Origin: Candidatus Levyibacteriota bacterium
Lineage (GTDB): Bacteria > Patescibacteriota > Microgenomatia > Levybacterales > UBA12049
NCBI GenBank assembly: GCA_963790825.1
Contig: CAWBPM010000002.1
Span: 618,815 to 682,814 of the forward strand
Length of the DNA stretch: 64,000 nt
Direction: 5' to 3'
The notes below the pieces were generated by a model, which worked only from the letters and a program-made list of their open reading frames with translations, had not been told where the DNA came from and did no database searches. This document shows positions 797 through 58,233 of this stretch, in pieces. Both the position numbers and the translations under genes were made by a program. Every line of letters begins with the position of its first letter. Positions within the stretch are counted from its first letter, which is position 1.

Positions 797-880
797 AGAA
801 TCTTCTTCCTTAAGATTCCAATATGTATCGTGACTTATTCAATCTATTTTTCCCTTTTGTTGTATTTGGAAAATTAGAAA
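1..880 (-). mobile_element. Partial IS element (IS481-like), left part outside window
   Basis: Contains the truncated transposase ORF. The boundaries are not defined because no inverted repeat was identified. Confidence 0.45.
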
Positions 881-910
881 TCGGACGTTGTATTTTTTCC
901 ATACAGAAAT

Positions 911-1528
911 TTATTGATTTTCATGCTCCGACAGACGCATTATCTCCATATGTAAATCTCTAAATTTTTCTGCCAGTTCCAACTGGCTTTTTTTTACTGC
1001 TAACAAAAAATTCTTACCCCAAACACGAACGATCGTATCATCTATTATCGAATATGTTGTGCCATACGCGCCATAAACCCTATCTGGACTTGCCAGTGCC
1101 TCCTCATATACTCGGGCGGATTTTCCTTTCGGCGTTATTGTCGGTTTCAAATGTTCAATCGTGAGTCTTCCAATAGCTTTTCCCCGCAGACTTTCAAGAT
1201 ATCTGAAAAAATCCTGCCGTTTGGACTCATCTGCAATTAATTCAACCTCTCTAACTAATTTACTCTCAATGCTCGCCCCGATATATGCACGTGCTTTTGG
1301 TAATGTCCCGTCAGTTTCCCATACTTTAAGTCCAAAAACTCTTTCCGACAATGCTTTCTTCTCAGATGGAACAGAAAAAAGCTCAGACAAACGGATTTGG
1401 TCACCAGCTAGTTTCTGTGTCAACTCACTACCGAAACCAAACAAAGACATATCCGCAACCGTCAATACATCCCGTTTACGTCGTTCTTCCTCAGAAGAAG
1501 ACCGTGATTGCCCATCTTCTTTAATCAT
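911..1528 (-). CDS. hypothetical protein (205 aa), no recognisable motif
   Basis: ORF track only. Sits directly next to the IS element and is preceded by a 26-bp perfect palindrome. Confidence 0.5.
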   Translation of the reverse strand: MIKEDGQSRSSSEEERRKRDVLTVADMSLFGFGSELTQKLAGDQIRLSELFSVPSEKKALSERVFGLKVWETDGTLPKARAYIGASIESKLVREVELIADESKRQDFFRYLESLRGKAIGRLTIEHLKPTITPKGKSARVYEEALASPDRVYGAYGTTYSIIDDTIVRVWGKNFLLAVKKSQLELAEKFRDLHMEIMRLSEHENQ

Positions 1529-1644
1529 ATTCCTCCCAATAAAACAGTTAATTTACTAAATCCTTCTTTTATGGATTGTAATTTCTGACCGGTAAAAATT
1601 TTCATATCATTCATTTTACAAAGAGATTCCGGAATACGCAACTT

Positions 1645-1670
1645 AATGTTAATTAACGTTAATTAACATT
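1645..1670. promoter_or_regulatory. 26-bp perfect palindrome AATGTTAATTAACGTTAATTAACATT (candidate operator)
   Basis: The sequence is its own reverse complement. It lies in the 160-nt gap between the stop of the 1690-2214 ORF and the start of the 911-1528 ORF. Confidence 0.5.
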
Positions 1671-1689
1671 AGGTTTTCTTAAAGTTTTC

Positions 1690-2214
1690 TTACTTATCCG
1701 GTTCGGGGAAATTTGTCTCTAAATAAGCAAATACCTTTGCGGATCGTTTACGAATTATATTAATAGCCGGCTCAACCATAGCTAAGTTTGGAAAAGATTT
1801 TGGGTTATGTGCTAAAAGATTCTCACGAATAGTTATATCATCTGCCCGCATAATTTCCGGTACAGAATGTTCTCCATATCTATACTTCATATCCCGAGGG
1901 AGAATATAAACATACAACAGATCGGGATTGACTCGTCCACGCAGTGTATGAAGCCTTCTTCCGACATAATTTCCCACCTGTCGCCTTATTTGATTTCTTT
2001 GCTCAACATCTAACGACTGTAATGCTTCTAATTCCCAATCATTATATCCTATGAATTCTGTCAACGTAATGCTTTTATTTGCATAAATAGCAGCAATTTC
2101 GTCTGAGACACCCACCTTTATGTATTGGTCTCGAGTCCGTTCAAAAGACGATTCTTTTGCTACAAAACGAGGAAATTGTTCAGAAAATAATCCCATATCG
2201 TTATTATAGGACAA
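1690..2214 (-). CDS. hypothetical protein (174 aa)
   Basis: ORF track; no family recognised. Confidence 0.5.
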   Translation of the reverse strand: MSYNNDMGLFSEQFPRFVAKESSFERTRDQYIKVGVSDEIAAIYANKSITLTEFIGYNDWELEALQSLDVEQRNQIRRQVGNYVGRRLHTLRGRVNPDLLYVYILPRDMKYRYGEHSVPEIMRADDITIRENLLAHNPKSFPNLAMVEPAINIIRKRSAKVFAYLETNFPEPDK

Positions 2215-2242
2215 TTAGTTGACAATTACAAGTTATGCATGC

Positions 2243-2536
2243 TTATTTTCCTCCTCCGAGCAGTCCGCCTAATCCTCCGAGACCTCCGGTCATTGACTGG
2301 AGTTTCTTGGCTGCTACTTCCTGGGACTTTTTAATCGCTTCATTGACTGCATCTTTAATATTGTCATCAGACTTTCCGTTAGTTTTTATATTTTTTATTT
2401 TCTGATCCCCAGATATTTCAATGTGAACACCTGATTTTTCGACAATAATCGTCTCTGCCTGCAGTTGGCGCTGGATTTGCATTGCCTGATCCCGCATTTT
2501 TCTTAATTCTCCGATTTGTCCAAAAGGATTCATCAT
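2243..2536 (-). CDS. ybaB: YbaB/EbfC family nucleoid-associated protein
   Basis: 97 aa. N-terminal MMNPFGQ...MQ, a central KIK helix region and a Gly-rich GGLGGLGGLLGGG tail are typical of YbaB. It is immediately downstream of dnaX, which is the conserved dnaX-ybaB(-recR) order. Confidence 0.85.
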   Translation of the reverse strand: MMNPFGQIGELRKMRDQAMQIQRQLQAETIIVEKSGVHIEISGDQKIKNIKTNGKSDDNIKDAVNEAIKKSQEVAAKKLQSMTGGLGGLGGLLGGGK

Positions 2537-2616
2537 AATCTATTCACCGCCTTTCTAAAAAGTATTATATATACAGACAAAATAAAAAATTTTTATACTT
2601 AATACATAATACAATA

Positions 2617-4305
2617 CTATTTTTGTTTTAATACAATTGACACTCCGATCGGTGTTCCTGTCAGTTCTTTACATATTTTTTGTAATACTTCCATAGTTTG
2701 CGTGTGACTGAGACGTTCTTTATGAAACTGATATGAGGTTTCAATAATAAGATCTTTTCTATCAAAGCTTTTTATGCTGCAGCCTCTCAGCACTCCGGCG
2801 GTAGTATGATTATGACCCTTCATCGAGTTAATAATGCATTTCCAAAATAGAGTAAGCCATTCCGGTGTAATTTCCCCTTCAGCAGAGTAGTTAAGTAGAT
2901 TGACTGACGCGATATCTACGATGCCGTCTCCATCCGTTTTTTGCTCGATTTCTCCGTAAAGGGCTTTGATTTTGGCAATATTGTTTACCTTTTTACGAAG
3001 TATCGCAACTGATACGTCATTTTCTCCGGAAGTTTTAGTAGCAGTTTTTTCATCTTTTTCCGAAGCAATCACGCTAATCTTTTTTTCATCTTTTTTTTCG
3101 CCTTCTATTTTTTCAAAAGCTTTACACCAGTCAATCAGCGCAATCTCAAGTGGCAATTGCAAAATCGGGGAATTTTTCATATCATTAGAAGCGAAACTGA
3201 AAAGACGAATGAGCTGTTTTATTTCCTCAATACCAAGCTTTATTTCATCTTTTTCAGTTTTTTCATCGGTTGTCACACCAACTTTTTGCAAGATTAGTAG
3301 ATGAAGTTCCTCCACCAATTCACCGGTAAAATATTTCATATCCATACCCTGGCTCACAAGTGTCTCAATCAGCTTTAGTCCTTCTGTTAACTTCCGCTTT
3401 TCAAGTATCCGAAGCATTGCGCTTAAATGAGATGCTATACCTATGATTTGATAGGTTTTATCTATAAATTCTTTTGTAATTTTCTTTCCGTTAGAAAGCG
3501 CCGTAACCTCTTCAAGGAGCTTTGTCGCATCACGAAATCCACCATCTCCCAGGTGAGCAATTTCCAATAATGCTTCTTCATCGATCTCGATTTTTTCCCC
3601 TTTTATAATCCGTTTCAAGGAACGGACGAGTTCCTGATCCGTCGCTTTCGTGAAAACAATCGTGAAACAACGGGAAAGAATCGTTGGAGGAACCTTATGC
3701 TGCTCTGTGGTGCAAAGAATAAACATTGCATGCTGGGGCGGCTCCTCAAGCGTTTTCAGAAGTGCGTTAAATGCTTCACTTGTTAACATGTGCACCTCGT
3801 CAATAATATATATCTTCTTTTTTGCCGAGATTGGAGATAAACGAATTTTATCTTTTAAGTCGCGTATTTCGTCAATTCCGCGGTTAGAAGCTGCGTCAAT
3901 TTCCAAAACGTCCAGGTTCGTGCCATTGGTGATCGAGACACATTGTATACACTTATTGCATGGTTCGATTTGATAAATTTCTTTATCTTCTAATTTTTGA
4001 TTTTTTATCTGTGTTTTTGACTTTTGATCCTTAACTTTTGACCTCCCTACACAATTAACAACCTTGGCAATGATTCGCGCTGAAGAAGTTTTCCCGAGTC
4101 CCTTGGGACCGGCAAAAAGAAACGCGTGGGGGACGGAATCCCACTCAGTGGGATGAGTCCGCCTGTCTTTCGACCCTGAGTTCAAGACCGAAGGGCCTGG
4201 CAGGGGTGGGGGATTTTTGGCTAGGACTGAAAAAAGCGTCTCCCGAACGTGCTTATTATCCAGTTCCTCAATTGTTTGGCCTCGATATTTTCTGTAGAAA
4301 ACCAT
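2617..4305 (-). CDS. dnaX: DNA polymerase III subunit tau/gamma
   Basis: P-loop GPKGLGKTS, Zn-module Cys cluster (CNKCIQC), DEVHML Walker B, LKTLEEPP, sensor SRC, and a C-terminal tau-specific region. Carries the conserved -1 frameshift heptamer (see separate feature). Confidence 0.9.
   Translation of the reverse strand: MVFYRKYRGQTIEELDNKHVRETLFSVLAKNPPPLPGPSVLNSGSKDRRTHPTEWDSVPHAFLFAGPKGLGKTSSARIIAKVVNCVGRSKVKDQKSKTQIKNQKLEDKEIYQIEPCNKCIQCVSITNGTNLDVLEIDAASNRGIDEIRDLKDKIRLSPISAKKKIYIIDEVHMLTSEAFNALLKTLEEPPQHAMFILCTTEQHKVPPTILSRCFTIVFTKATDQELVRSLKRIIKGEKIEIDEEALLEIAHLGDGGFRDATKLLEEVTALSNGKKITKEFIDKTYQIIGIASHLSAMLRILEKRKLTEGLKLIETLVSQGMDMKYFTGELVEELHLLILQKVGVTTDEKTEKDEIKLGIEEIKQLIRLFSFASNDMKNSPILQLPLEIALIDWCKAFEKIEGEKKDEKKISVIASEKDEKTATKTSGENDVSVAILRKKVNNIAKIKALYGEIEQKTDGDGIVDIASVNLLNYSAEGEITPEWLTLFWKCIINSMKGHNHTTAGVLRGCSIKSFDRKDLIIETSYQFHKERLSHTQTMEVLQKICKELTGTPIGVSIVLKQK
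3079..3099 (-). other. dnaX programmed -1 ribosomal frameshift signal: tandem slippery heptamers A_AAA_AAA and A_AAA_AAG
   Basis: The coding strand reads GGC GAA AAA AAA GAT GAA AAA AAG ATT AGC (codons 402-411). A -1 shift at the first site gives AGA TGA. A -1 shift at the second gives GAU UAG. Both terminate within 2 codons, which would produce a gamma-like product of about 405-410 aa, as in E. coli dnaX (A AAA AAG). Confidence 0.6.
4128..4215 (-). other. GC-rich, hairpin-forming in-frame insertion in the dnaX N-terminus (encodes PPPLPGPSVLNSGSKDRRTHPTEWDSVP)
   Basis: About 88 nt of markedly higher GC than the flanking sequence, inserted between the conserved LAKN and HAFLFAGPKGLGKTS segments. 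Contains a perfect ATCCCAC-TCA-GTGGGAT hairpin and G-runs. There is no counterpart in canonical DnaX. Confidence 0.5.
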
Positions 4306-4315
4306 AAAAAAAATT

Positions 4316-4376
4316 AGAATCTAGAATTATAAATTCTAAACTAATTATGAATTCTGAATTTTGAATTCTAGATTCT
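4316..4376. repeat. TRAATTY heptamer / inverted-repeat element (AGAATCTAGAATT ... AATTCTAGATTCT, 13-bp perfect IR with 35-nt spacer containing TGAATTC TGAATTT TGAATTC)
   Basis: Lies between the ybeY stop and the dnaX start. Related elements are at 5903-5999, 7556-7700, 30183-30300 and 50790-50850. Confidence 0.7.
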
Positions 4377-4761
4377 ACTCGTGGTGCATGCCCAGTAAAT
4401 GTAATAATCCATGTTTTACCAGCTCATCAATTTTATCGTCAACCAACACTTCTTCCGCCGCAGCCTCCCTGATTATTTGCGGATATGCCAAAACAATATC
4501 CCCTAACCTGGTAATACCCTCCGGAAGTATTGCTTCTCCGCCTTCGTTAATTGGAAATGATAAAACGTTTGTTGTTTTATCTTTATCTCGGTATTTTTTG
4601 TTCAAAGATCGCATTTTCCTATCTCCCACAATTGCCACGGATACTTCAGTGGGACTACTAATATTATTTTCTCCAATTATTTCCTGAACAGCTTGTTTTA
4701 TCCGTTTTCTATTTACGCTATACCGACTTTCAACAAAGATAAGAACACGAATACTGCTCAT
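4375..4761 (-). CDS. ybeY: rRNA maturation endoribonuclease YbeY
   Basis: 128 aa with a C-terminal HGLLHLLGMHHE metal-binding motif (H..H.....H) typical of YbeY/UPF0054. Confidence 0.85.
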   Translation of the reverse strand: MSSIRVLIFVESRYSVNRKRIKQAVQEIIGENNISSPTEVSVAIVGDRKMRSLNKKYRDKDKTTNVLSFPINEGGEAILPEGITRLGDIVLAYPQIIREAAAEEVLVDDKIDELVKHGLLHLLGMHHE

Positions 4762-4762
4762 A

Positions 4763-4957
4763 TTACATTGCTCTCCGTCTCATTTTGCGGGCTTCTTGCT
4801 CTTCAAGCTTTCTTCTCTCCTGTTTATTAAGGTGAAATTGCCGCCTTCTGATCTCAGGAATAATCCCCGCGTCAGTTACTTTGCGTGAGAAGAGTTTAAT
4901 CAGCTGATCTTCGCTTTGTCCCGGTTGTCGTTTTACTTTAACCATATACAAAAACAC
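4763..4957 (-). CDS. rpsU: 30S ribosomal protein S21
   Basis: 64 aa, very basic. VKVK...LIKLFSRKV..GIIPEIRRRQFHLNKQERRK matches the S21 pattern (VKV..E..LRRFKR..G...E.RRR.Y.KPS). A GGAAGGGGG Shine-Dalgarno lies upstream. Confidence 0.8.
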   Translation of the reverse strand: MFLYMVKVKRQPGQSEDQLIKLFSRKVTDAGIIPEIRRRQFHLNKQERRKLEEQEARKMRRRAM

Positions 4958-5083
4958 CCCCTTCCAAAAGGTACTCGCCTTCTATTTTACCTCAAATCGA
5001 CAGCGGTGTAAACAGGAGAGGCTGGAATTGGTTTTAGAAGTTTCACTGCAAATTCTGCTAGATCTTTTTTAGATCCTAACTAA

Positions 5084-5494
5084 TTATCTTTGTTGACTAA
5101 GAGATTTCTGTGGAGATTGTGTAAAGGCTCTTAGCCATTCCTCTTCACTAGTCTTTTCTATAAGAGCTTCTGTTGCCATTGAAATCCTGGAGACAGTTCC
5201 TGCTAGTTTCTCGAAATCATTGGTTTGTAATTGTTTCAGGTTTGGTTCTCCATGAAGAAGAGCCATAAAGCAGTTCATTGGGGTAGGTCGGGTTCCCCCT
5301 CTAGCATTGAATCTTTCTTCGTAAGAAGAGCCATAGAGACATGCTCCATATACCATAAAACTTATTGGTGTACGAACGCCTAACTCAGCCAACACGACGT
5401 TATCACTTGATAGTTGTGCATTGATTTCATTAGGAGACATAGCATTTACTCTTTCCTCAAAAGTAAGCACTCTGAATTGATCTCGCTCTGCCAT
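5084..5494 (-). CDS. hypothetical protein (136 aa)
   Basis: ORF track; no motif recognised. Confidence 0.45.
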   Translation of the reverse strand: MAERDQFRVLTFEERVNAMSPNEINAQLSSDNVVLAELGVRTPISFMVYGACLYGSSYEERFNARGGTRPTPMNCFMALLHGEPNLKQLQTNDFEKLAGTVSRISMATEALIEKTSEEEWLRAFTQSPQKSLSQQR

Positions 5495-5572
5495 ACTTCA
5501 AGAGTATATCAAAAACATAATTAGGTTGCAAACTCAGCGCAATTTATGATTACGATAATATATATAAAGGAT

Positions 5573-5902
5573 TTATACTCCACCAGCGACTCCGCGCATG
5601 GGGCCTAGAAGGTGAATGTGCAGATGGTCAACGTCTTGATGTCCTCCGCCATTAATCACTATTTTATATCCCTTATCCTTTAAGTCAGCCTTATCAACCA
5701 TTTTCTGGACGACATGAAGCAGCTTCTTCCAAAGTATCTGGTCTTCAAGAACTACAAACTCCGGAATATGTTTTTTCGGCATAATTAACCAGTGGATAGG
5801 CTTGACGGGATGGATATTGGGGAAAACCACAATATCTTCGTCCTCAAAGATGAATTTCGCAGGAATTTTCCCTTCTTTAATTTTGCAAAAAATACAATTC
5901 AT
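5573..5902 (-). CDS. HIT family (histidine triad) nucleotide hydrolase
   Basis: 109 aa with the HxHxHxx motif HLHIHLL near the C-terminus and an N-terminal CIFCKI typical of HINT proteins. Confidence 0.85.
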   Translation of the reverse strand: MNCIFCKIKEGKIPAKFIFEDEDIVVFPNIHPVKPIHWLIMPKKHIPEFVVLEDQILWKKLLHVVQKMVDKADLKDKGYKIVINGGGHQDVDHLHIHLLGPMRGVAGGV

Positions 5903-5999
5903 AAAAGAATTTAAAAATTATAATTCAAAATTCAGAATTAAGTATATAATTTTCAAATTCTAAATTCAATTCTGAAATATAAATTCTTAATTCTAAATT
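5903..5999. repeat. TRAATTY heptamer / inverted-repeat element (AAATTCAGAATT ... AATTCTGAAAT arms)
   Basis: An AT-rich intergenic sequence built of AATTCAA/AATTCAG/AATTCTA units with about 10-bp inverted arms and a 38-nt spacer. Confidence 0.6.
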
Positions 6000-6892
6000 T
6001 TTTCAAGCACTTTTATAAGTTCTTCCAGGCTTAGTTTCGTCGGCACCATTTTCGGGTTTTTTGGTGTTCCGTTTAACAGCATTTTTTTGCTGACATGCAG
6101 GTACCAGCTAGCATCCGGATCAATTTTTTTCAATTTTTCATAGGCTAATGTTAAATCCAGATTGTCTTTTTCAGGATTTTCTGCCGGACGAAGTTTAATC
6201 CGCACATAGCTTTTTCTCGGATCTTTCCTAATAACCAGATTATATCCCATTTTTTGTGAAAGCTTCAGAACCGAATCGTTAATCGTTTTAAAGCCGATTG
6301 CTTTCCCCCATCTGGTTTGAAAAAGAATACCGTTACCGTCTATTTCCCGTTCTGCCCAAATTCTATTTTCAAATTCATGAACTACACTGTCCAGACAAAC
6401 TTTGCCAAACTCCACATAATATTCATCTTCATCCGGCTTTGCCAGTTTCAACCCTTCCAAAACACCGATAAGTGAAAATTCCTGGTAATCGGCAGTCGGG
6501 TTGTTCCAAAATATTTCGCGAAAATGATCAATCTCCACGACTATCTTGATTACTCTATCTATCGCTTTCATATGTTCAGCTCTTAGTACGTCGCCACTTT
6601 TCGTGATTTCTTCTCTTATATAGTCCCAGGTCCTGCTCGCCCCACAAATCGTCAGGTCCGATGTTTCGTGGTGATCGAGTGGTCCCATTCCCGTATCAAC
6701 ATGCACAATCTCGTCTTTGCCGACTTTTTGCATAATATCGCCCATGTCAAGCCCTTTTACCCGCTCAGATCTAAGTCCTGCTGCAACAAATTCCACCGCA
6801 GCGTTCTCCCATCCGCTAAGATATTTTTTAATGAGCCACACAGATGTTATCGCGTCCCAATCAGGCGACGTGTGAGTAACAATAATTTTCAT
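5993..6892 (-). CDS. DHH family phosphoesterase (NrnA-like nanoRNase / pAp phosphatase)
   Basis: N-terminal IVTHTSPDWDAITS (motif I DxD), HVDTG, and GPLDHHE (DHH motif), followed by a DHHA1-like C-terminal half. Confidence 0.75.
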   Translation of the reverse strand: MKIIVTHTSPDWDAITSVWLIKKYLSGWENAAVEFVAAGLRSERVKGLDMGDIMQKVGKDEIVHVDTGMGPLDHHETSDLTICGASRTWDYIREEITKSGDVLRAEHMKAIDRVIKIVVEIDHFREIFWNNPTADYQEFSLIGVLEGLKLAKPDEDEYYVEFGKVCLDSVVHEFENRIWAEREIDGNGILFQTRWGKAIGFKTINDSVLKLSQKMGYNLVIRKDPRKSYVRIKLRPAENPEKDNLDLTLAYEKLKKIDPDASWYLHVSKKMLLNGTPKNPKMVPTKLSLEELIKVLEKI

Positions 6893-6993
6893 ACTAAAAA
6901 TAGAGTATAGAGTGTTTTTCCTCTGAATTCAATGAGCGAGAGATAATACTTGACAAATTATCAAGAATTACCGATCATAGATAATGAGAGCTT

Positions 6994-7494
6994 ATGGATC
7001 CGAAAGCATTTTCTCATCTTGATCCGAAATTAAAAGCAGCTTATGACCGCGTGATGAATACGGCAACCAAGCCAGCCTCGCCGAGCTTAGACGGACCTGC
7101 TTTGGCTCAACCTTCCACCTTTACATCACAGCCTCCTGTCAATCAGTCGCCACTCGTACCTGGAAACCAAACCCCACCTCCGGCTTTCACTCCTCCTCAA
7201 AATTCTGCTTTTTCTGCTTCTTCTCCTTTTCCTCAGGCAACACAGCCGTCTGTATCTCCTCTAACCTACCAGGTTAACGAAATACCGCAAGCCGAAAAAA
7301 CACTAAGTGCGTTGGCCCAAAGAATGTCTCAGGGCGGTCAAGTTCCCAGCAACAGTCACACTATATCTACTGCAGCAAGACATCAACAAGCTTCAAAAAC
7401 TTTACCGTTTCTGCTTATAGGTGCAGGAGCAGTTTTTCTTATCGCTTATGTCATTTTCTGGATGAAATTTTTCAATCTCCCCCTGCCATTTTAG
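6994..7494 (+). CDS. hypothetical Pro/Ser/Thr/Gln-rich protein with C-terminal transmembrane anchor
   Basis: Low-complexity PxxP-rich central region with a single C-terminal hydrophobic helix (LPFLLIGAGAVFLIAYVIFWM). Possible TTGACA -35 at 6950-6955. Confidence 0.5.
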   Translation: MDPKAFSHLDPKLKAAYDRVMNTATKPASPSLDGPALAQPSTFTSQPPVNQSPLVPGNQTPPPAFTPPQNSAFSASSPFPQATQPSVSPLTYQVNEIPQAEKTLSALAQRMSQGGQVPSNSHTISTAARHQQASKTLPFLLIGAGAVFLIAYVIFWMKFFNLPLPF

Positions 7495-7555
7495 CCAGCA
7501 AATTACCCTTATTATAGTTCATTAGTCGAGTAGGATCAAATGATTTCAAAATCCA

Positions 7556-7700
7556 GACAGATAAATCCTAAATACTAAGTTCTAAATCCTAAATAAATCC
7601 AAATGTTCAAAATCTTAATTTTAAAACAGTTTTGTATTTTTTTATTTGAATTTTAAAATTATTTAGAATTTAGTGCTTAAGGTTTAGAATTTTTCAGACA
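7556..7700. repeat. AT-rich intergenic repeat cluster (AAATCCTAAATA x2, TTTAGAATTT x3) between convergent genes
   Basis: Direct inspection of the 250-nt gap between 7494 and 7745. Confidence 0.5.
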
Positions 7701-7744
7701 GACGTTGAAATGCTTTTCTGCGCGGGCATGACAGAATGGAACTA

Positions 7745-7972
7745 TTAAACTTCTCCAACGTAGTCAAACCGGGGAACTTGCTTTCCATTCAAAATAACTT
7801 TTTCAGTGAACATTTTAAGAGGTCTTACCCATAATTTACTTAAAGGATTATCATAAAGTGCTTCATATACCACCAAATCTTCCAGGGTTTCGCTATGCTT
7901 TGCTATACCAATCACTCGATATAACTTACCTGTTTTTGTATGTTTGTACATTCCTAGTTTCAGTTTACTCAT
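7745..7972 (-). CDS. DUF1653 domain protein
   Basis: 75 aa. YKHTKTGKLYRVIGIAKHSETLEDLVVYEALYDNPLSKLWVRPLKMF matches the DUF1653 pattern (YRHYKG..Y.V....HTE..E..VVY.....LWVRP..MF). Confidence 0.7.
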   Translation of the reverse strand: MSKLKLGMYKHTKTGKLYRVIGIAKHSETLEDLVVYEALYDNPLSKLWVRPLKMFTEKVILNGKQVPRFDYVGEV

Positions 7973-7996
7973 AAAGCAGGATATTTATTTTATATT

Positions 7997-9244
7997 TTAA
8001 GAAGATTTTGCGGCTTGTAATCTCTTTACAACTTCGTCTAAGCTAAGAAGTTCTGCGCCAGCCGCGTTTGATTCGGTTCGCTTTTTCCATTCAATTTTTT
8101 CTTGGGTCTTTAAGCTAATAACCAAACGAACCGGAATTCCGATCAAATCCGCATCGGCAAATTTCTCTCCCGGACCGACTGTTTCCCGATCATCATACAA
8201 AACAGAAATGCCGGCTTTTTGTAGCTCATGATAAACGTTCTCTGCTCTATGTTTCACTATTTCATCATCCAAATTTAAACCAACCAGATGTACTACATAC
8301 GGTGCGACTGCTTCAGGCCAGATAATTCCCTTATCGTCATGAAATACCTCAACTATTGCCCCCAGGAGTCTGGTGAGTCCGATGCCATATGCGCCAAACC
8401 AGGCAAACTGCTCTTTGCCTAAATTATTAGTAAAAGAGACACCCATTTTTTTACTATACTCAATGCCATATTTAAAAATATTTCCTACTTCAATCGCTTT
8501 TTTTGTTTCAATTTCCGGATCTTTTAGTTCTTCCTCGGTCATAATTTCTTTATTTTTCCAAAACTTCCAGCCTTTTTTAAAATAAATTGTGTCTTCTCCG
8601 CTTTCAGATATTACTTGAAATTCATGTGTATGCGAGTTGGTGAAAACTCCGCCCGCAGCTTCGACTACAATTGCCTCCAAATTCATCCTTTTGAATATTT
8701 TCAGATACGCGTCTTTAACTTTCCAGTAGTAATCGTTCATTTCTTCTTCCGTCGCGTGCAGACTATAAAGGTCTTTCATTAAGAATTCCCGCTCCCGTAA
8801 AATGCCGGATTTTGCGCGCAGTTCATTTCTGAATTTAGTTGACATATGGTATAAAAGCAGCGGAAGATCACGATACGTTCTCATATGTTTTCTTGCCACA
8901 TCAAGAAAAATTTCCTCGTGGGTAAATGAAAGTGTAAATTCTTTATCGTTTTTTTTAAGCTTGTACATCACTTCGTCTGCCCGGTCCCACCTTCCCGTTT
9001 CATTCCAAATGTCTTTCGGATGCAGAAGCGGCATAAGCATTTCAGAAGCACCTGTTCTGTTTATTTCTTCGCGAATAATATCCTCGATTTTCCGTTCAAC
9101 AATCCGGCCAAGCGGCAGTAATGTATACGAGCCCGCCATCAATTTATCAATAAATCCACCGCGAAGCAGATACCGCGCATTGATCGCTACTTCGTCTTTT
9201 GGCGCTTCTTTTATGGTTTTCGGGAAGTGATGGGAATACCGCAT
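7997..9244 (-). CDS. proS: proline--tRNA ligase (compact form without the editing-domain insertion)
   Basis: MRYSHHFPKT.KE.P.DE.INARYLLRGGFI...GSYTLLPLG..V..KIEDIIREE, class II motifs, and a C-terminal anticodon-binding domain, 415 aa. Confidence 0.85.
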   Translation of the reverse strand: MRYSHHFPKTIKEAPKDEVAINARYLLRGGFIDKLMAGSYTLLPLGRIVERKIEDIIREEINRTGASEMLMPLLHPKDIWNETGRWDRADEVMYKLKKNDKEFTLSFTHEEIFLDVARKHMRTYRDLPLLLYHMSTKFRNELRAKSGILREREFLMKDLYSLHATEEEMNDYYWKVKDAYLKIFKRMNLEAIVVEAAGGVFTNSHTHEFQVISESGEDTIYFKKGWKFWKNKEIMTEEELKDPEIETKKAIEVGNIFKYGIEYSKKMGVSFTNNLGKEQFAWFGAYGIGLTRLLGAIVEVFHDDKGIIWPEAVAPYVVHLVGLNLDDEIVKHRAENVYHELQKAGISVLYDDRETVGPGEKFADADLIGIPVRLVISLKTQEKIEWKKRTESNAAGAELLSLDEVVKRLQAAKSS

Positions 9245-27326: not shown

Positions 27327-28406
27327 CTAGACGCTACTTTTTGTTGCTGCTTTCTTTGCTTTTTCTGTTTTGACTTTCACTGGTTTTGCAACTTTTTTTT
27401 CTTCTGCTTGCCCTGAGCGAGGTCGAAGGGTTTTCGCCTCTGGTTTTTTTACTGCCTCTTCGGCTTTTTTGGCTTCTTTGGTCTGCCCCACCTGCCCCGC
27501 GCTTTGCCCTTCCGACTTGTCCGGCGAAGCCTTGGCGGAGTTGGAAGCTTTCAGCGAAGGAGAAGAGTCTTGCTTGCCGGTCGAAGCCTTGCTTGCCGGT
27601 CGAAGCCTTGGCGGAGTCTGAGCGGAGTCTGGAGGAAGTGGGGAGCTTTGTTGAAGGGCTTTCTTCTCTGCTTCTAGGGCTGCTTTCGTTGCTTCCTCTT
27701 GTGCACTCTTTTTTCCTTCAATCCACGAATCTACGATATAACTCGTGATTAATTTGATTGAGCCAACTGCATCATCATTAGCGGGAATCGGATAATCAAT
27801 AATCGTCGGATCAGAGTTAGTATCGGTAATTCCGACTGTTGGTACATGCATTTTCCTGGCTTCCCGTACAGCCAAATCCTCAAGGTGCGTATCAATAATA
27901 AAAACCGCGTCAGGTGTATGAATCATTTCCGAAATTCCTCCATAGAAACTCAGTAATTTGGTTCTCTCTTTTTCCCACAGCGATACTTCTTTTTTGGTAT
28001 ATTTTGCTTTTTCCTCAGGGCTTTGCAGATTTTCTTCAAGTGTTTTCAACTTTTTAAAGTTTTTTAATACTTCAGAAAAATTGGTGAGGATACCGCCAAT
28101 CCAACGATTGGTAACGAAATATAAACCTGTTGCCCCTGCTTCATGTGCTCGTTTCGCTTCTTCCAAGACGATGCCTGCAGCCTGTCTCTTCGCGCCGAGC
28201 ATGATCATCGTGCCATCCTTTTTAGCGATACTTCTTACGAAGTTACCCGCCTCTTCGAGTCCTTCTTTAGTTTTGGCTAAATCGATAATGTGGATATTGT
28301 CGCGAGCTTCGAAAACAAAATCGCGGGACTTAGGATTTTGGCGAGTTACTTGGTGGCCAAAATGGCACCCAGCTTCAAGAAGTTCTTCAAGTGTAATTGT
28401 ACGCAT
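27327..28406 (-). CDS. rpsB: 30S ribosomal protein S2 with about 110-aa low-complexity Lys/Ala/Pro-rich C-terminal extension
   Basis: LLEAGCHFGHQ...VTNRWIGGILTNF, then a tail of KASTGKQDSSPSLKASNSAKASPDKSEGQ...KKAATKSSV containing tandem DNA duplications. Confidence 0.9.
   Translation of the reverse strand: MRTITLEELLEAGCHFGHQVTRQNPKSRDFVFEARDNIHIIDLAKTKEGLEEAGNFVRSIAKKDGTMIMLGAKRQAAGIVLEEAKRAHEAGATGLYFVTNRWIGGILTNFSEVLKNFKKLKTLEENLQSPEEKAKYTKKEVSLWEKERTKLLSFYGGISEMIHTPDAVFIIDTHLEDLAVREARKMHVPTVGITDTNSDPTIIDYPIPANDDAVGSIKLITSYIVDSWIEGKKSAQEEATKAALEAEKKALQQSSPLPPDSAQTPPRLRPASKASTGKQDSSPSLKASNSAKASPDKSEGQSAGQVGQTKEAKKAEEAVKKPEAKTLRPRSGQAEEKKVAKPVKVKTEKAKKAATKSSV
27573..27632. repeat. Tandem duplications inside rpsB tail: 19-bp unit CTTGCCGGTCGAAGCCTTG x2, followed by an approx. 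11-bp GCGGAGTCTG(A) x2
   Basis: Direct inspection. The 19 + 11 = 30 nt of duplicated sequence keeps the frame. Confidence 0.7.
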
Positions 28407-49620: not shown

Positions 49621-50616
49621 TTATACTGCTGCTACGTTTTTTCCTTCGTAGAATCCGCCGGCAACAGTCAGTTCCGCTTTAATCAGAGGATGTGGGTCAT
49701 AATTTTCCAGCAGTACATGTTCGGGTTTAATATCAGCCAAAGTTTTAACACTCGGATCGATAGTAATTGTCGGGAAAGGTTTCGGTTCACGTTTCAATTG
49801 TTCTTTTACTTGCTCAATATGATTCTCATAAATATGCACATCACCATACGAATGAATAAACTCGCCCGGTTCAAGATTTAATATTTTGGCCAGAATTACT
49901 GTCAAAAGTGCATAAGAAGCAATATTAAACGGAACACCTAAAAACAAATCGCAGCTTCTTTGATACAAAATCAGAGACAATTTTCCGTCCCGATTACTTA
50001 CCTGATACATATTGTGGCAAATCGGAAAACGGGATGCATTTTCAGAATCAGCCATCGTATAGAGATATTCCGGATTCCATGAATTGACAATAGCGTTATG
50101 AGCATTCGGATCCGCTTTCAACTCGTCTATTACCCATTGCAGCTGGTCGATGGTCCGGCCGGTCTTAGTCGGCCAGCGCCGCCACATTTCGCCGTAGATA
50201 CGCGGTAATTCTCCCCATTTGTTGGCAAATTTATCATCGGTTGCGATTTTTTCGATGAATTCTTCTTTCGTCATCACCGGTAAAACTAAATCCTCGACCA
50301 CTTTTTTATATGTTTTGTACGGATAGTCATCCCAAATATGTACATTGTTATCAACTAAATATTTTATGTTTGACCGTCCTGACATGAACCAAAATAGTTC
50401 GTACAAAACACCTTTCCAATAAACTTTTTTCGTAGTTAACAGAGGAAATCCTTGGGACAGATCGTATCTGGCTTGCTTACCGAATAAGCTGTATGTTACG
50501 ACACCTGTTCCGCGGTCGACTTGTTTTATGCCGGTATCTAAAATTTCCTGGAGTAAATTGAGGTATTGATATTCTAGATGATTTCTTTTAACTATTTTTA
50601 CCCCATTAGATTTCAT
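49621..50616 (-). CDS. thyA: thymidylate synthase (ThyA, long form with insertions)
   Basis: FPLLTTKK, LPICHNMYQ...LILYQRSCDLFLGVPFNIASYALL (catalytic Cys and dUMP-binding region), 331 aa. Confidence 0.9.
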   Translation of the reverse strand: MKSNGVKIVKRNHLEYQYLNLLQEILDTGIKQVDRGTGVVTYSLFGKQARYDLSQGFPLLTTKKVYWKGVLYELFWFMSGRSNIKYLVDNNVHIWDDYPYKTYKKVVEDLVLPVMTKEEFIEKIATDDKFANKWGELPRIYGEMWRRWPTKTGRTIDQLQWVIDELKADPNAHNAIVNSWNPEYLYTMADSENASRFPICHNMYQVSNRDGKLSLILYQRSCDLFLGVPFNIASYALLTVILAKILNLEPGEFIHSYGDVHIYENHIEQVKEQLKREPKPFPTITIDPSVKTLADIKPEHVLLENYDPHPLIKAELTVAGGFYEGKNVAAV

Positions 50617-54132: not shown

Positions 54133-57100
54133 ATGCAATTTTCCTTGATAAAATTTTATCCAAAAAGCTTGCACGTTTTCCGTATTTTCTCTACTCGATT
54201 TCTCGGAGTTTTTATTGCTTTGCTATTATTTCAAGCTACTAGTCCGGTTCAAAAAGCTTATGCGCAATATGCTGGCAATTTATTACAAAATCCATCGTTT
54301 GATACTACTTCACCTAATTGGCCTTCTCCTTGGTATATGTCTGTTTATCCTGATGCTGCTGCTACGGTAACTCAGGATATGTCAACGTATGTTGATGGAA
54401 ATTCCTCCGCACGAGTCGATATCAATACAGCCAGTCCGACCTTTTGGCATATCCAGCTACTGCAAACCGATGTTCCAATATCTCAAGGCGTTTCTTATAC
54501 AATCACCTTTTGGGCTAAGGCAACAACAGCTCGTACTATCAACGTTGTTGATCAAATGGGACTCTATCCCTATAACTCTTATTTCAGTCAGGATATCGAT
54601 ATCACTACCTCATGGCAACAATATACAATTACATTTACTGCTCCCGTAAATGACTCGCGTTCTCTTTTTACTTTTAACATAGGACTGCAAACCGGTAGTG
54701 TTTGGTTCGATGCTACGTCATTCCACTTTACTCTGCCTGATGATTATTGTTATGGACAAGGTGTCTATTTATATACCAACATAAATTGGACTGGTGCGTG
54801 TGCTAGATTTACTGCTGATACTCCTGATTTAACCAGTAGCATAGGCAACGGCACTGCTCAATCCGTTAGACTTGTAGGTGACTACGCTGCGACATTGTAT
54901 TCGGGTACAAACTATACTGGATCATCAAGCGCAGTTACTTCCGATGTCGCTGATCTTAGTACCACTGATGTTGGTCAAAAAGCTGTTTCTTCATTACAAA
55001 TTGCCGTACCTACTCCGACTCCTACTATACTTCTTGCACCTACAGCTACTCCGAGCGGCACAACTTACTCGATTACCGGAAATGTTTATAATGATCTTAA
55101 TAAAAATGGCGCGAAAGATTTAAGTCCGACATGGCAACAACTTACCAGCACCGTTACTGTAGATTATAACGACAGAACCAGTCTGGGAATTTCTGTTATC
55201 ATGGAAGGCGCATCCGGTACAGATTCGTTTCAAGTAGATGATATTTCTTTACAATTGGACAGCGGCCCAAATCTAATCACCAACCCCGGGTGTGAGGCAG
55301 ATACAAGCGACTGGGCTGGAACGCAAGCAACTCTTTCACAAGATACGACAGATTTTCATTCGGGTAGCGCGTCTTGTAATGTTCAGCAAACTACCGGAGA
55401 TCAATTTTCAATAAGCGACCAACCGGCTACTGTAAGTAATCCTCCGATGGGACAACAATATACAGCTACTGTTTGGGTCCGTACCGATTCATTAAATAAA
55501 CCGGTTTGGCTGTCTATAACAATGTCCGGTGGAGCCAATCCTGACGTAACTACGTATAGCCCAGCATTTGCTATGAACTCTAGTGAACCGAACTACAGCG
55601 GAGGAGCTGTTATTCAGTTATCAGACGGAGAGCAAACGGTTACCGATGCGAATGGAAATTATGCTTTTAATAACGAGCCATCCGGAACATATACGGTATC
55701 GCTTGCCTCGACAAGTATTTATACCCCGACTACATCCTCTTCTCAAACAATTGATCTGACAAGTGGCGACCAAACTGTTAACTTCGGATTGTATTACACC
55801 AGCTATACTTTGGCGGGGAATGTATTCGTCGATACCAATGACGATGGAGTTCAAGACGGAAGCGAAACCGGTTTTCCCGCAGGAACTGTTACCATTGCAG
55901 GTCCTGTATCCAAACAAGTAACTACAGATTCAGCTGGAAATTATTCGATACCTAATCTTCCTACCGGTATTTATATTGTCCAATATGCATTACCGTTTGG
56001 TTATACAACATCCACGACCAATCCGGTTACGATAAGTCTGGTTGCCAATACCATAGTTAATTTCGGACTTTCTCCATATACTCCTGCAGTCCTTACCAAC
56101 TCATGTGGTGCTGCTGCTCCCGAAGCAGATATCATGCTTGTTCTTGATTCTTCCGGTTCAATGGGTGAAGGAAGCAAAATACATGATGCCATAGCAGCTG
56201 CACAAAGTTTCGTTGATACGGTTGCAAGTCAACACCCTGCAAGCCAGGTGGGATTAGTAACATATAGTACCACCGTCCATATTGTAGATCCATTAATGCA
56301 AGACCATGGTGCTAACCAAACAAAATTAGATCATGATTTGGGAACTGCTGTAGCAGACGGTACTACATGCGGTTTATGTGCTATGCAAGAAGCAGTTAAT
56401 CAGCTCGAAAGTGGACACCATGGTAACGATACGAGAGTAATTGTTTTTCTTACTGACGGAATCGAAAACTATTTGCCGGGAGGACATGATCAAGTCCCTC
56501 CGCAAACAGCTCAGGATCCGATTTTGGCTCTGGCAGATCAAGAACATAATGATCACGGAACGAGCTTCTTCACGATAGGACTGGGAACTGATGTTGACGC
56601 AAATTTCCTGCAAAAACTAGCTGACGATACCGAAGCGAAATATTACTTCACTCCTACTTCCGATCAACTAAATTCGATTTATGCCAGTATTTATTATGAA
56701 ATTACTCAGGGTGTCGGCCAAGTCAAGGGAACTGTGTATAAAGATGTTAATTTTAACCGCCGCTTAGATGCAGCTGATCTAGGACTGCCCAGTTGGATTG
56801 CCACCTTAAGCAATGGAACAACCACTTATACGCAAGTGACAGATGTATCCGGAAATTATACTTTCACCGGTATTTGTACCGGCGCATATACCTTGCAGGA
56901 GCAAGCACAACCCGGCTGGTTTCAGGACAGTCCGAGACACCCAAGCAACTATGCCATTAATGTCCTTAACAGTTCAGCCATAACCAAGAAAAACTTTGGT
57001 AATACCCAAGGATATACTGTAGCTGGTTTTGTTTTTGACGATAGAAATAAAAATCAAACTTTCGATTCCGACGAAACAGCATTTACGAGCGGACTTGATA

Positions 57101-58233
57101 TTACATTTACACCTACCAACGGCACTACTTCGACTGCCGGATCAGTGGTATATGATACCACATCCGGACAATACACTGTTCAGGGTTTATTGCCCGGATC
57201 ATACATAATTTCTTACTTAGGGCCTTTACCTGTCCACTATTTCCCTGTCTATCCGGTCGGTGCCCCTTTCCCGTCGTATGTTGTCACTGTCGGTCCCGGC
57301 TGCAGCGTTGACGGCACAACAGGAGGTAGTTGTGATCCTGCAGGTAGTATTTCAGATTTGGATTTCGCAATCAGCGATTCAACTCCCTGGATACAAATAC
57401 GAGGTTTAGACGGCAGATTCGATAATGGTTACGAAGATAAAATTCCTCCCGGTATTACGGCAGCTTGCGGACCATATGAAGCAGTTCCCCAATCTTCAAT
57501 TCCTCCGGCTACTCCCGGAATTATTTTCTCAGGTGACCAGACAAGTTTGTTTGACTCGGGATCATCATCTACTACCGGTTGGGTTGTCGGTGGGCCGACA
57601 TATCCGGAAGTATTTACCCCTAAAACTGCCGGCGTAATGAAAACTTCTTATAATTATCTTCTGAGTCTTGCTCAACAATCGAACGTACCAATTACCGATC
57701 TCTCAACCATTTGCAATCTGAGCAATTGTACTTTGCCTAACGGTCTTTCACACGGAGTTTACCAATCTAACGGTGATCTTACGTTAAATAGCTTTATATT
57801 CCAAGGAAATAGTAATTATGTCATATTGGTAGCTGGAAACTTACATGTTATGGGAAATATCCAAGTAACTTCCGGTAGTACTGCCATTTTTTCTGTTGGT
57901 AAAGATATTATTTTCGATAAAACTATCGGAGATCTTAATCCTATTTGTCCACCGACGTCTTCTCATATCGAAGGCTTATACAGTAGTGATCAGAACATCA
58001 TAATCGACGGTAATGACAATTGCGTGGTTGGTCCGGATAATATGCTAAACGTTCAAGGCGCATTGGTCGCCAATGCCGGTTCCACAGGCGGTTCGTTGCT
58101 TTTGCATAGAGATCTCTGCGGAAATAATTTTATTGGCCCGGCTTTAACTGTTACCCAGCGGCCTGATTTTATTCTAAATGCTCCTGATTTTATTAAGCAG
58201 CAAAACTATTTTTTCCAGGAAGTCGCCCCATAA
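54133..58233 (+). CDS. giant secreted surface protein: CBM4/9-like carbohydrate-binding modules + Cna-B/SdrD-type repeats + von Willebrand factor A domain + C-terminal beta-helix-like region
   Basis: Signal peptide FLGVFIALLLFQATSPVQKAYA. NLLQNPSFDTTSPNWPSPW...ITFWAKATTARTINVV is CBM4/9-like, and a second such module follows (GPNLITNPGCEADTSDWAG...VWVRTD). Repeated GNVYNDLNKNGAKD, GNVFVDTNDDGVQDGSETG and GTVYKDVNFNRRLD segments are SdrD-B/Cna-B-like. The vWA MIDAS motif is IMLVLDSSGSMGE...T...VIVFLTDG. Confidence 0.7.
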   Translation: MQFSLIKFYPKSLHVFRIFSTRFLGVFIALLLFQATSPVQKAYAQYAGNLLQNPSFDTTSPNWPSPWYMSVYPDAAATVTQDMSTYVDGNSSARVDINTASPTFWHIQLLQTDVPISQGVSYTITFWAKATTARTINVVDQMGLYPYNSYFSQDIDITTSWQQYTITFTAPVNDSRSLFTFNIGLQTGSVWFDATSFHFTLPDDYCYGQGVYLYTNINWTGACARFTADTPDLTSSIGNGTAQSVRLVGDYAATLYSGTNYTGSSSAVTSDVADLSTTDVGQKAVSSLQIAVPTPTPTILLAPTATPSGTTYSITGNVYNDLNKNGAKDLSPTWQQLTSTVTVDYNDRTSLGISVIMEGASGTDSFQVDDISLQLDSGPNLITNPGCEADTSDWAGTQATLSQDTTDFHSGSASCNVQQTTGDQFSISDQPATVSNPPMGQQYTATVWVRTDSLNKPVWLSITMSGGANPDVTTYSPAFAMNSSEPNYSGGAVIQLSDGEQTVTDANGNYAFNNEPSGTYTVSLASTSIYTPTTSSSQTIDLTSGDQTVNFGLYYTSYTLAGNVFVDTNDDGVQDGSETGFPAGTVTIAGPVSKQVTTDSAGNYSIPNLPTGIYIVQYALPFGYTTSTTNPVTISLVANTIVNFGLSPYTPAVLTNSCGAAAPEADIMLVLDSSGSMGEGSKIHDAIAAAQSFVDTVASQHPASQVGLVTYSTTVHIVDPLMQDHGANQTKLDHDLGTAVADGTTCGLCAMQEAVNQLESGHHGNDTRVIVFLTDGIENYLPGGHDQVPPQTAQDPILALADQEHNDHGTSFFTIGLGTDVDANFLQKLADDTEAKYYFTPTSDQLNSIYASIYYEITQGVGQVKGTVYKDVNFNRRLDAADLGLPSWIATLSNGTTTYTQVTDVSGNYTFTGICTGAYTLQEQAQPGWFQDSPRHPSNYAINVLNSSAITKKNFGNTQGYTVAGFVFDDRNKNQTFDSDETAFTSGLDITFTPTNGTTSTAGSVVYDTTSGQYTVQGLLPGSYIISYLGPLPVHYFPVYPVGAPFPSYVVTVGPGCSVDGTTGGSCDPAGSISDLDFAISDSTPWIQIRGLDGRFDNGYEDKIPPGITAACGPYEAVPQSSIPPATPGIIFSGDQTSLFDSGSSSTTGWVVGGPTYPEVFTPKTAGVMKTSYNYLLSLAQQSNVPITDLSTICNLSNCTLPNGLSHGVYQSNGDLTLNSFIFQGNSNYVILVAGNLHVMGNIQVTSGSTAIFSVGKDIIFDKTIGDLNPICPPTSSHIEGLYSSDQNIIIDGNDNCVVGPDNMLNVQGALVANAGSTGGSLLLHRDLCGNNFIGPALTVTQRPDFILNAPDFIKQQNYFFQEVAP

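Follow-up and report, generated by a model that had tools for sequence, protein, structure and literature searches.

The extra segment found early in the dnaX gene is most probably a single, lineage-specific, in-frame insertion in the surface loop between helix alpha1 and strand beta1 of the DnaX AAA+ module, one that is tolerated by the protein and probably disordered. It looks like an ordinary tolerated insertion and not like a hidden RNA gene or a mobile element, although its origin looks non-native. Throughout, 'the window' is the whole 64-kb stretch of DNA analysed, which forms part of a contig of ~751 kb.

The dnaX locus and the limits of the extra loop

The protein is DnaX, the AAA+ clamp loader, as judged by its motifs, Zn module, profile matches and gene neighbourhood. 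In a 59-sequence alignment, Walker A (GPKGLGKT), IIDEVHML (with the Walker B DEVH), LSRC (the SRC motif) and the four-Cys Zn module (C85/C116/C119/C122) all occupy invariant columns, and all catalytic motifs are intact despite the insert. Comparison with the PDB matched E. coli gamma/tau structures (down to E=3e-40), and the precomputed Pfam matches are PF13177, PF12169, PF22608 and PF00004; the annotation of the relatives reads DNA polymerase III subunit gamma/tau, with PF13177, PF12169 and PF00004 among their own Pfam matches. The gene order rpsU-ybeY-dnaX-ybaB is common to the window and the relatives, and both the N-terminus (MVFYRKYR..) and everything from HAFLF onward can be aligned to them. 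The Zn module of the whole clade has a variable insert of its own, of about 22 residues. The features of the locus discussed here, in gene direction, are as follows.

2617..4305, minus strand: dnaX, DNA polymerase III gamma/tau clamp-loader subunit, 562 aa, intact (uninterrupted ORF)
4219..4254, minus strand: AAA+ module helix alpha1, made up of residues 18-29 and immediately preceding the insert (AF2 model)
4206..4213, minus strand: upstream copy of the 8-nt direct repeat TCCCCCAC, within codons N31-P34
4129..4212, minus strand: extra loop, codons P32-P59 (PPPLPGPSVLNSGSKDRRTHPTEWDSVP), Pro/Gly/Ser-rich (codon map, loop-length distribution, GC, codon usage, AF2)
4136..4195, minus strand: 60-nt gap (20 codons) relative to the closest loop subtype, 'NP(P/L)SFQDVPH' of relatives P0005 and P0042 (MAFFT DNA alignment, codon comparison)
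4138..4154, no strand assigned: perfect 7-bp inverted repeat ATCCCAC-TCA-GTGGGAT with a 3-nt loop, codons H51-D56, statistically unremarkable
4126..4133, minus strand: downstream copy of TCCCCCAC, within codons V58-H60
4087..4125, minus strand: strand beta1 (AFLFA) and, after it, the Walker A P-loop (GPKGLGKT), a block that immediately follows the insert (motifs, AF2, PDB)

A first-pass annotation of this DNA had described an 88-nt in-frame insertion at this site. The sequence that it quoted is present at 4128-4215, inside the 562-aa dnaX ORF, but dnaX lies on the minus strand and the quoted string is therefore antisense. Likewise, the insertion is indeed in frame, but 88 is not divisible by three and the net gain is 60-78 nt. 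Measured against the modal loop of the relatives the net insert is 78 nt (26 codons), and loop peptides of the 'NPPSFQDVPH' subtype give the shorter net gain of 60 nt. The frame is open throughout, with no stop codon in the frame of the gene. The added peptide, PPPLPGPSVLNSGSKDRRTHPTEWDSVP, is encoded between ..LAKN, at the end of helix alpha1, and HAFLFAGPKGLGKTS, at strand beta1 (HAFLF), after which comes Walker A. The annotation was right to call it a Pro/Gly/Ser-rich loop between these two elements, and its figure of about seven canonical residues agrees with the ~4-10 that relatives have there. The observation as a whole was partly confirmed, and the interpretation placed on it was partly supported.

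An AlphaFold2 model of DnaX, built from the 59-sequence alignment, has a helix at residues 18-29, coil through residues 30-53 with pLDDT below 50, and a strand at 61-65, while the blocks flanking the insert reach pLDDT 87-93. On this model the added surface loop is probably disordered. Either of the peptide stretches SVLNSGSK and DRRTHPTEWDSVPHAFLFAGPK, if detected in DnaX, would mark the insert as translated.

Relatives and the permissive site

The insert is missing from every one of the 118 nearest DnaX relatives (identity of 58% or lower); the nearest sampled relative is itself only about 54-58% identical. Among 119 DnaX proteins, including that of the window, YRKYR and HAFLF lie 29-33 apart in 99, 36-37 apart in 15 and 46-56 apart in the remaining five. 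Long inserts of 16-22 residues occur at exactly the same site in four other Patescibacteria DnaX proteins and are unrelated in sequence, indicating that the site is a permissive indel hot-spot. The insert in the window is the longest at this site among the 119 proteins, and the sole GC-rich one with atypical codons among those examined. In the three other lineages with DNA available, the inserts have a GC content of 0.33-0.46 and a GC3 of 0.04-0.17. Since these inserts are AT-rich and native-looking as well as unrelated in sequence, long loops appear to arise here repeatedly and independently. No similar loop was seen in DnaX among the 120 best relatives, and when the 32-aa loop was run by HMMER in full against 1.84 billion representatives, a search of low power for short peptides and with no assured positive control, none came up at E<=1e-3. 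Word-indexed short-peptide searches missed even the protein of the window itself and are uninformative.

Of the origins considered in the first-pass annotation, the lineage-specific loop is the one that fits: the segment is in frame, it falls at a site of independent long inserts in Patescibacteria, and it is predicted to be disordered. It resembles other lineage-specific indels in surface loops of AAA+ clamp loaders, which are likewise in frame, predicted to be disordered, located between secondary-structure elements and without effect on the catalytic motifs. We propose that one insertion, with a net gain of 60-78 nt, entered the loop joining helix alpha1 to strand beta1. The insert would be transcribed and translated with the rest of dnaX, adding ~20-26 Pro/Gly/Ser/Arg-rich residues as a most likely disordered loop, and would be tolerated because of the structural permissiveness of the alpha1-beta1 loop. 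Both the hairpin and the 8-nt repeat at the flanks would then be incidental by-products of a C-rich, Pro-codon-rich sequence.

Composition and origin of the insert

The claim that the GC content of the segment is well above that of the rest of the gene was borne out: no other 88-nt window in the 64 kb reaches the GC of 0.648 found at positions 4125-4212, the mean being 0.399 and the sd 0.067, and dnaX outside the insert has native composition. For codons P32-P59, GC1/2/3 is 0.61/0.64/0.68, compared with 0.50/0.38/0.36 for the genome. The anomaly is real, but much of the excess is explained by the encoded amino acids (Pro, Gly, Arg, Ser and Ala codons), the remainder being due to synonymous codons that are rare in this genome. 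Given the peptide and the codon usage of the genome, an insert GC of 0.563 is expected and 0.643 is observed (P=0.012), and GC3 is 0.679 as against an expected 0.427 (P=0.004); not one of the seven Pro codons in the insert is CCG, the preferred Pro codon. Other GC-rich windows of this genome are mostly Pro/Thr/Ala-rich low-complexity protein segments. No genome-wide habit of GC-rich inserts was seen, the other top GC/GC3 windows being Pro/Thr linkers, the S2 tail and the conserved ThyA core. Two results had been named in advance as contrary to an unusual element, namely a shared insert with normal codon usage in close relatives and a flat GC plot; neither was obtained, as the insert is missing from the relatives and atypical in codon usage, and the GC plot has its peak there.

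The use of codons rare in the genome suggests that this DNA did not evolve as native coding sequence, and that it is either young or was captured from elsewhere. We infer that the loop is functionally neutral and that the insert is recent or foreign. Against a neutral loop it can be argued that a genome of 40% GC should drift it AT-ward, as has happened in the other lineages, so that a GC3 of 0.68 would fit only a young or a nucleotide-constrained insert. Our searches found no donor sequence.

A miniature mobile element lodged in frame in dnaX and tolerated as a peptide, comparable to the Rickettsia palindromic elements (RPEs), MITEs or mitochondrial GC clusters, would account for a GC-rich segment with atypical codon usage in an AT-rich genome and for its internal inverted repeat. 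It has a documented precedent in the RPEs inserted in frame within Rickettsia genes (PMC10969869), and like RPEs and intragenic MITEs the insert is short, contains a palindrome, sits in frame in a reduced genome's housekeeping gene and adds a peptide to its product (PMC10969869). RPEs, however, are ~150 bp long and occur in families of dozens of repeated copies whose peptides are conserved, whereas the insert spans 60-84 nt, belongs to no family and has one copy in the 64-kb window, where searches with blastn (word 7), nhmmer --max and tblastn found no second. The insert was also unmatched in phage, plasmid and E. coli collections. A scan for exact 20-26-mers in viral, genome and metagenome contigs returned three isolated 20-mer matches, none of which extended, a yield attributable to chance (about one match is expected per scan by our own estimate); two fall within Verrucomicrobia repeats that encode 'WEFKTEGP', the third within an Asp/Gly-rich 'NPTQWDD' repeat. 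Terminal inverted repeats are absent: the two ends are not complementary, and the sole inverted repeat is internal (4138-4154). Local shuffling seldom yields an 8-nt direct repeat such as the one that occurs at both junctions (P about 0.007). This repeat favours a mobile origin, but its reading as a target-site duplication is weakened in two ways: the copies of TCCCCCAC are spaced 80 nt apart, which is not a multiple of 3 and would break the frame after a simple duplication, and they align to N-P-P (upstream) and V-P-H (downstream) codons that insert-free relatives already have. The miniature element raised in the first-pass annotation thus finds no support in the copy search of the window and of the public collections, and we regard it as improbable. 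Replacement of the loop region by homologous recombination with the long-loop dnaX allele of a GC-richer relative also seems unlikely. The atypical codons within an otherwise native dnaX speak for such a patch, as do the flanking ancestral codons, which are likewise shifted to GC-ending synonyms (GTC CCC CAC GCG in the window, GTT CCA CAC GCT/GCC in P0005 and P0042); against it stands the failure to find a similar loop in the 120 best relatives or in the low-power HMMER pass. That the segment is unique, has no homologue that we could find and differs in composition from its surroundings might even suggest a chimeric insertion produced by assembly or sequencing. We hold such an artefact to be highly unlikely, because the segment is exactly in frame in an essential gene without a stop codon, is unmatched in the E. 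coli, phage and plasmid collections, and recurs in an independently assembled Logan contig, reached via a YbeY look-up, whose 7,354 nt equal positions 814-8167 of the window at 100% identity, insert included; the protein with the insert is recorded in NCBI, ENA and Logan.

Hairpin, RNA and bypass readings

GC-rich islands in AT-rich genomes are often RNA genes, and the GC maximum of the 64 kb falls on the insert. Its raised GC3 could stem from selection at the nucleotide level, and the gene strand allows both a GAAA-capped hairpin and the 7-bp hairpin to be drawn. Each of these points would suit a structured RNA within the dnaX mRNA (cis-regulatory element, ribozyme or sRNA) or an antisense sRNA gene on the plus strand, yet we judge such an RNA to be very unlikely. 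The perfect 7-bp hairpin to which the first-pass annotation drew attention does exist at 4138-4154, but occurs no more than by chance: the window holds 44 perfect 7-bp hairpins, and one turns up in 6.1% of the shuffled inserts (dinucleotide shuffling), so that no significance can be attached to it. An unusually stable fold was rejected as well, the z-scores against dinucleotide shuffles being -0.95 to -1.3 on either strand with two choices of boundary, i.e. within about 1 sd. Rfam 15 (including SRP RNA, ribozymes, riboswitches, tRNA-like RNAs and rRNA) gave no hit at the gathering score in the window and none over the insert (4126-4213) even at E<=10, so that the embedded RNA, like the mobile element, is left with no support. 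ARAGORN found no tRNA or tmRNA, no RNA family was found in the same neighbourhood of relatives, and no promoter-like site was seen upstream on the plus strand, where the terminator-like match is weak (5-bp only). No homologous insert occurs in any database searched. The SRP RNA gene, ffs, often adjoins dnaX in bacteria, and one version of the RNA reading would make the insert a relic of it, both being small GC-rich sequences close to the dnaX start. The insert, however, lies within the coding region and shows neither an Rfam match to SRP RNA nor a long hairpin nor the conserved domain IV motif ('AGCA' is absent); both of its halves, 5' and 3', are rich in C on the gene strand and cannot pair, making a long SRP-type hairpin impossible. 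We therefore rejected ffs or any other known RNA inside dnaX.

The analogy with translational bypass elements, such as the T4 gene 60 coding gap and the 'byps' of Magnusiomyces mitochondria, is that these too are GC-rich, hairpin-capable and intragenic in an AT-rich genome, with matching codons at their ends. By this analogy the insert might be a bacterial counterpart, a mobile hairpin-forming GC cluster between matching Pro codons that is partly hopped. Pro codons CCC/CCA/CCC (P32-34) and CCC (P59) do lie in frame 75-81 nt apart, which is trivial in a Pro-rich loop, and skipping the segment at Pro codons 78 nt apart would restore ..LAKNPPHAFLF, the common loop of the relatives. Were this so, a stall at PPP and a hairpin from codon 34 might help the ribosome to hop to the short form, read-through giving the long-loop form. 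Known bypass elements contain or precede a stop codon or are out of frame, and so must be skipped, whereas no stop codon or frame disruption forces a bypass here and the open frame renders one unnecessary. Byps are 27-55 nt long. The gene 60 gap, at 50 nt according to bioRxiv 10.1101/2022.08.31.505936, is likewise shorter than the insert, and the same source reports that a mobile element carries it. Signals of the gene 60 kind are not evident in the insert, and we consider a bypass extremely unlikely. Nor does the insert fit an intein, for which at least about 130 residues, an N-terminal Cys/Ser and a C-terminal His-Asn followed by Cys/Ser/Thr would be expected: it is only 26-28 residues long, starts with Pro and has no HN junction.

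What stays puzzling about the preferred reading, a tolerated lineage-specific insertion, is the retention of GC-rich, non-native codons in an AT-biased genome, given that the three inserts examined elsewhere are AT-rich; this would become interesting only if further copies, or closer relatives bearing the insert, were to appear. The insert may be of minor use in marking the lineage and in showing where DnaX would permit engineered tags. If the reading is correct, DnaX would be another essential replication protein of a reduced-genome (CPR) bacterium that tolerates a sizeable insert in a surface loop.

The extended loop of DnaX and its counterparts

The dnaX gene of the window is a single uninterrupted ORF. 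Its product begins MVFYRKYRGQTIEELDNKHVRETLFSVLAKN and, from HAFLFAGPKGLGKTS onward, aligns with the DNA polymerase III gamma/tau (DnaX) of Patescibacteria (best non-self matches 54% identity by BLASTP, up to 58% in the alignment); E. coli gamma/tau structures also align with it (E=3e-40).

2617..4305, minus strand: dnaX, 562 aa
4129..4212, minus strand: extra loop, codons P32-P59, PPPLPGPSVLNSGSKDRRTHPTEWDSVP, between the MVFYRKYRGQTIEELDNKHVRETLFSVLAKN and HAFLFAGPKGLGKTS parts

The string quoted for this segment in the first-pass annotation is present in dnaX, but it reads along the plus strand and is the antisense of the gene.

Loop length was compared across 119 DnaX sequences, the window's own included, as the number of residues from the YRKYR motif to HAFLF. 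This spacing is 29-33 in 99 of the 119, 36-37 in 15 and 46-56 in five, with the window's DnaX the longest at 56. None of the relatives among the 119 carries this insert. Long inserts of unrelated sequence are found at exactly the same site in four of them (P0011, P0097, P0098 and P0120), and such independent occurrences indicate that the alpha1-beta1 loop is a recurrent permissive insertion site. The three other long inserts with DNA have a GC of 0.33-0.46 and a GC3 of 0.15, 0.17 and 0.04, at or below the averages of their own genes, and of the inserts examined at this site the window's is the only GC-rich one. Locally, the closest loops are those of the relatives P0005 (..LAKNPLSFQDVPHAFLF) and P0042 (..LSKNPPSFQDVPHAFLF), which have the N-P-P and (D)-V-P-H codons of both flanks; DNA alignment with the window opens one 60-nt gap, at ∼4136-4195.

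An AlphaFold2 model of the window's DnaX (59-sequence alignment; mean pLDDT 82.6) places a helix at residues 18-29 and a strand at 61-65 leading into the P-loop; residues 30-53 between them are coil and 54-57 a single helical turn, with pLDDT below 50 at residues 34-45 and 48-52 and of 87-93 in the adjacent 10-residue blocks. From this coil and its low pLDDT, the extra residues are predicted to loop out flexibly between two clearly defined elements, and general clamp-loader topology would put the alpha1-beta1 connection at the exterior of the AAA+ module. A second insert, in the Zn-binding module (residues 86-113, ∼3967-4050), leaves 30 residues between the first two Cys, C85 and C116, compared with 8 in the E. 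coli gamma protein. This second insert is rich in Lys and in AT, holds a 16-nt direct repeat (3994-4009 and 4014-4029), has a pLDDT of ∼61-64 and, in contrast to the GC-rich insert, is clade-wide with variable sequence.

The order S21-YbeY-DnaX-YbaB is common to the window and its relatives. An AT-rich imperfect palindrome (4315-4377; arms of 31 nt, 81% complementary, with TAGAAT/GAATTC-like units) fills nearly all of the 69-nt ybeY-dnaX gap. Promoter-like hexamers overlap it on the gene strand, its Rfam matches are spurious miRNA-like ones only, and it could be an operator, a ybeY terminator or the dnaX promoter region. The gaps of relatives are longer (119-144 nt), likewise AT-rich and different in sequence. 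At the P0011 locus, an IS66-family transposase fragment (L002 1877-2194) lies between the HIT gene and rpsU, directly upstream of the conserved rpsU-ybeY-dnaX block.

Base composition and codon usage

The local GC excess proposed from the sequence holds up: no other 88-nt window of the 64 kb is as GC-rich as positions 4125-4212, at 0.648 (mean of all such windows 0.399, sd 0.067, 99.99th percentile 0.625). Because most of the windows ranked next encode low-complexity protein segments rich in Pro, Thr and Ala (e.g. the S2 C-terminal tail and PT linkers), amino-acid and codon effects were separated by re-encoding these 28 residues with codons sampled from the window's own codon usage. The sampling gave an expected GC of 0.563 (sd 0.033) and GC3 of 0.427 (sd 0.09), against 0.643 (P=0.012) and 0.679 (P=0.004) observed. 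Minor codons occupy most positions, the preferred CCG being used at none of the seven Pro codons, and among all 28-codon coding windows the insert's GC3 ranks third (top 0.3%), below an apparently conserved core segment of ThyA and the tail of S2. By this comparison, Pro/Gly/Arg/Ser codons account for about two thirds of the excess in GC, and the remaining third is a genuine anomaly at synonymous sites. The atypical codons suggest young or non-native DNA.

Other GC-rich stretches of the window were also noted. ORF 27327..28406 (minus strand), ribosomal protein S2-like by sequence, ends in a tail of ∼110 residues in which Ala, Ser, Pro and Lys are abundant (27327-27660). Within this tail lie the second GC-richest 88-nt window (0.636) and a stretch of 28 codons whose GC3, 0.75, is above that of the dnaX insert. 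GC3 in 28-codon windows peaks (0.79) at residues ∼138-165 of the thymidylate synthase-like ORF 49621-50616 (minus strand), in an apparent conserved core segment rather than an insert, so local GC3 peaks occur in apparently native sequence too. Several further GC-rich windows come from two adjacent, very large plus-strand ORFs (54133-58233 and 58293-61244; 1,366 and 983 aa) with hydrophobic N-terminal segments, repeated beta-rich modules and long Pro/Thr linkers.

Hairpin and junction repeat

The hairpin ATCCCAC-TCA-GTGGGAT is present at 4138-4154 as first described, but points to no structure beyond composition. The window contains 44 perfect 7-bp hairpins with 3-8-nt loops (at least four of the pairs being G-C in seven of them), one turns up in 6.1% of dinucleotide shuffles of the 88 nt, and the minimum free energies of the insert lie ∼1 sd or less from shuffles (z-scores of -0.96 on the gene strand and -1.29 on the plus strand for 111 nt; -0.95 and -1.11 for the exact 88 nt). 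At gathering score, Rfam returned no family anywhere in the 64-kb window; nothing overlapped the insert at E<=10, and three relatives' loci gave no match. ARAGORN found no tRNA or tmRNA gene in the 64 kb, and promoter and terminator scans for plus-strand sRNA signals showed nothing convincing. Despite the hairpin, a structured RNA, whether antisense or embedded in the mRNA as initially suggested, is thus very unlikely, with no Rfam match and folding no better than that of shuffles. Of the reading frames, just the gene's own and one on the antisense strand run open across the segment. The SRP RNA gene ffs often adjoins dnaX; an ffs relic was rejected, as no model matched, the domain IV AGCA motif is absent and both segment ends are C-rich on the gene strand, making the SRP hairpin impossible.

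The sequence TCCCCCAC (gene strand) is present twice, at 4206-4213 and 4126-4133; exact matches of 8 nt or more arose in 0.66% of trials in which the two junction windows were shuffled separately. The pair looks like a target-site duplication, but the 80-nt spacing would require an element of 72 nt with an 8-nt duplication, which together would break the frame, and both copies coincide with the N-P-P and V-P-H codons already in insert-free relatives (AAT CCA CCC ... GTT CCA CAC). We take the repeat to reflect similar Pro-codon contexts, or at most a microhomology used in insertion.

Origin of the insert

We consider it probable that the insert is a translated, disordered loop specific to this lineage, gained in one in-frame insertion event where the protein is permissive. 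Of the origins initially proposed, a lineage-specific loop has the best support, as relatives lack the insert, the site is permissive and disorder is predicted. A miniature mobile element, another of those proposals, is unlikely: terminal inverted repeats are absent, and blastn (word 7), nhmmer --max and tblastn recovered only the segment itself within the 64-kb window. Plasmid, phage and E. coli genome collections gave no match to the insert. Exact scans yielded no match in public viral contigs, none and then two in public genome contigs, and none and then one in public metagenome contigs; these three are bare 20-mers in unrelated repeat proteins, without extension, and by our own estimate about one such match per scan is expected by chance. 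A patch recombined from an unsampled, GC-richer dnaX is similarly improbable, since a DnaX with a similar loop was not found among the relatives compared. HMMER with the 32-aa loop against 1.84 billion representatives, a search of low power, found nothing. Word-indexed protein search with short or composite peptides missed even P0001, the DnaX of the window itself and an exact match to the peptide, and its negatives for queries under ∼150 aa are not readable as absence. An assembly artefact is highly improbable, as a separately assembled Logan contig (ERR11594402_259834; 7,354 nt) matches window 814-8167 at 100% identity, insert included, so that the segment is no quirk of a single assembly.

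The ribosome has to skip over the gene 60 coding gap and the byps of mitochondria, whereas the window's insert has an open frame and requires no hopping. A byp/gene-60-like element, in which ribosomes could hop between matching Pro codons 78 nt apart and so regenerate the canonical ..NPPHAFLF loop, is very improbable. The coding gap of phage T4 gene 60 is 50 nt and is reported to be carried on a mobile element (bioRxiv 10.1101/2022.08.31.505936). Rickettsia palindromic elements likewise insert in frame into housekeeping genes, but as repeated families of ∼150 bp (PMC10969869), whereas the window's insert has no second copy in 64 kb. With these elements, the gene 60 gap and byps it shares only superficial traits, being short, GC-rich, hairpin-capable and intragenic. 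The GC-rich synonymous sites of the insert, in an AT-biased genome, are the mildly unexplained remainder; the original observation is real, and the insert is an ordinary kind of feature.
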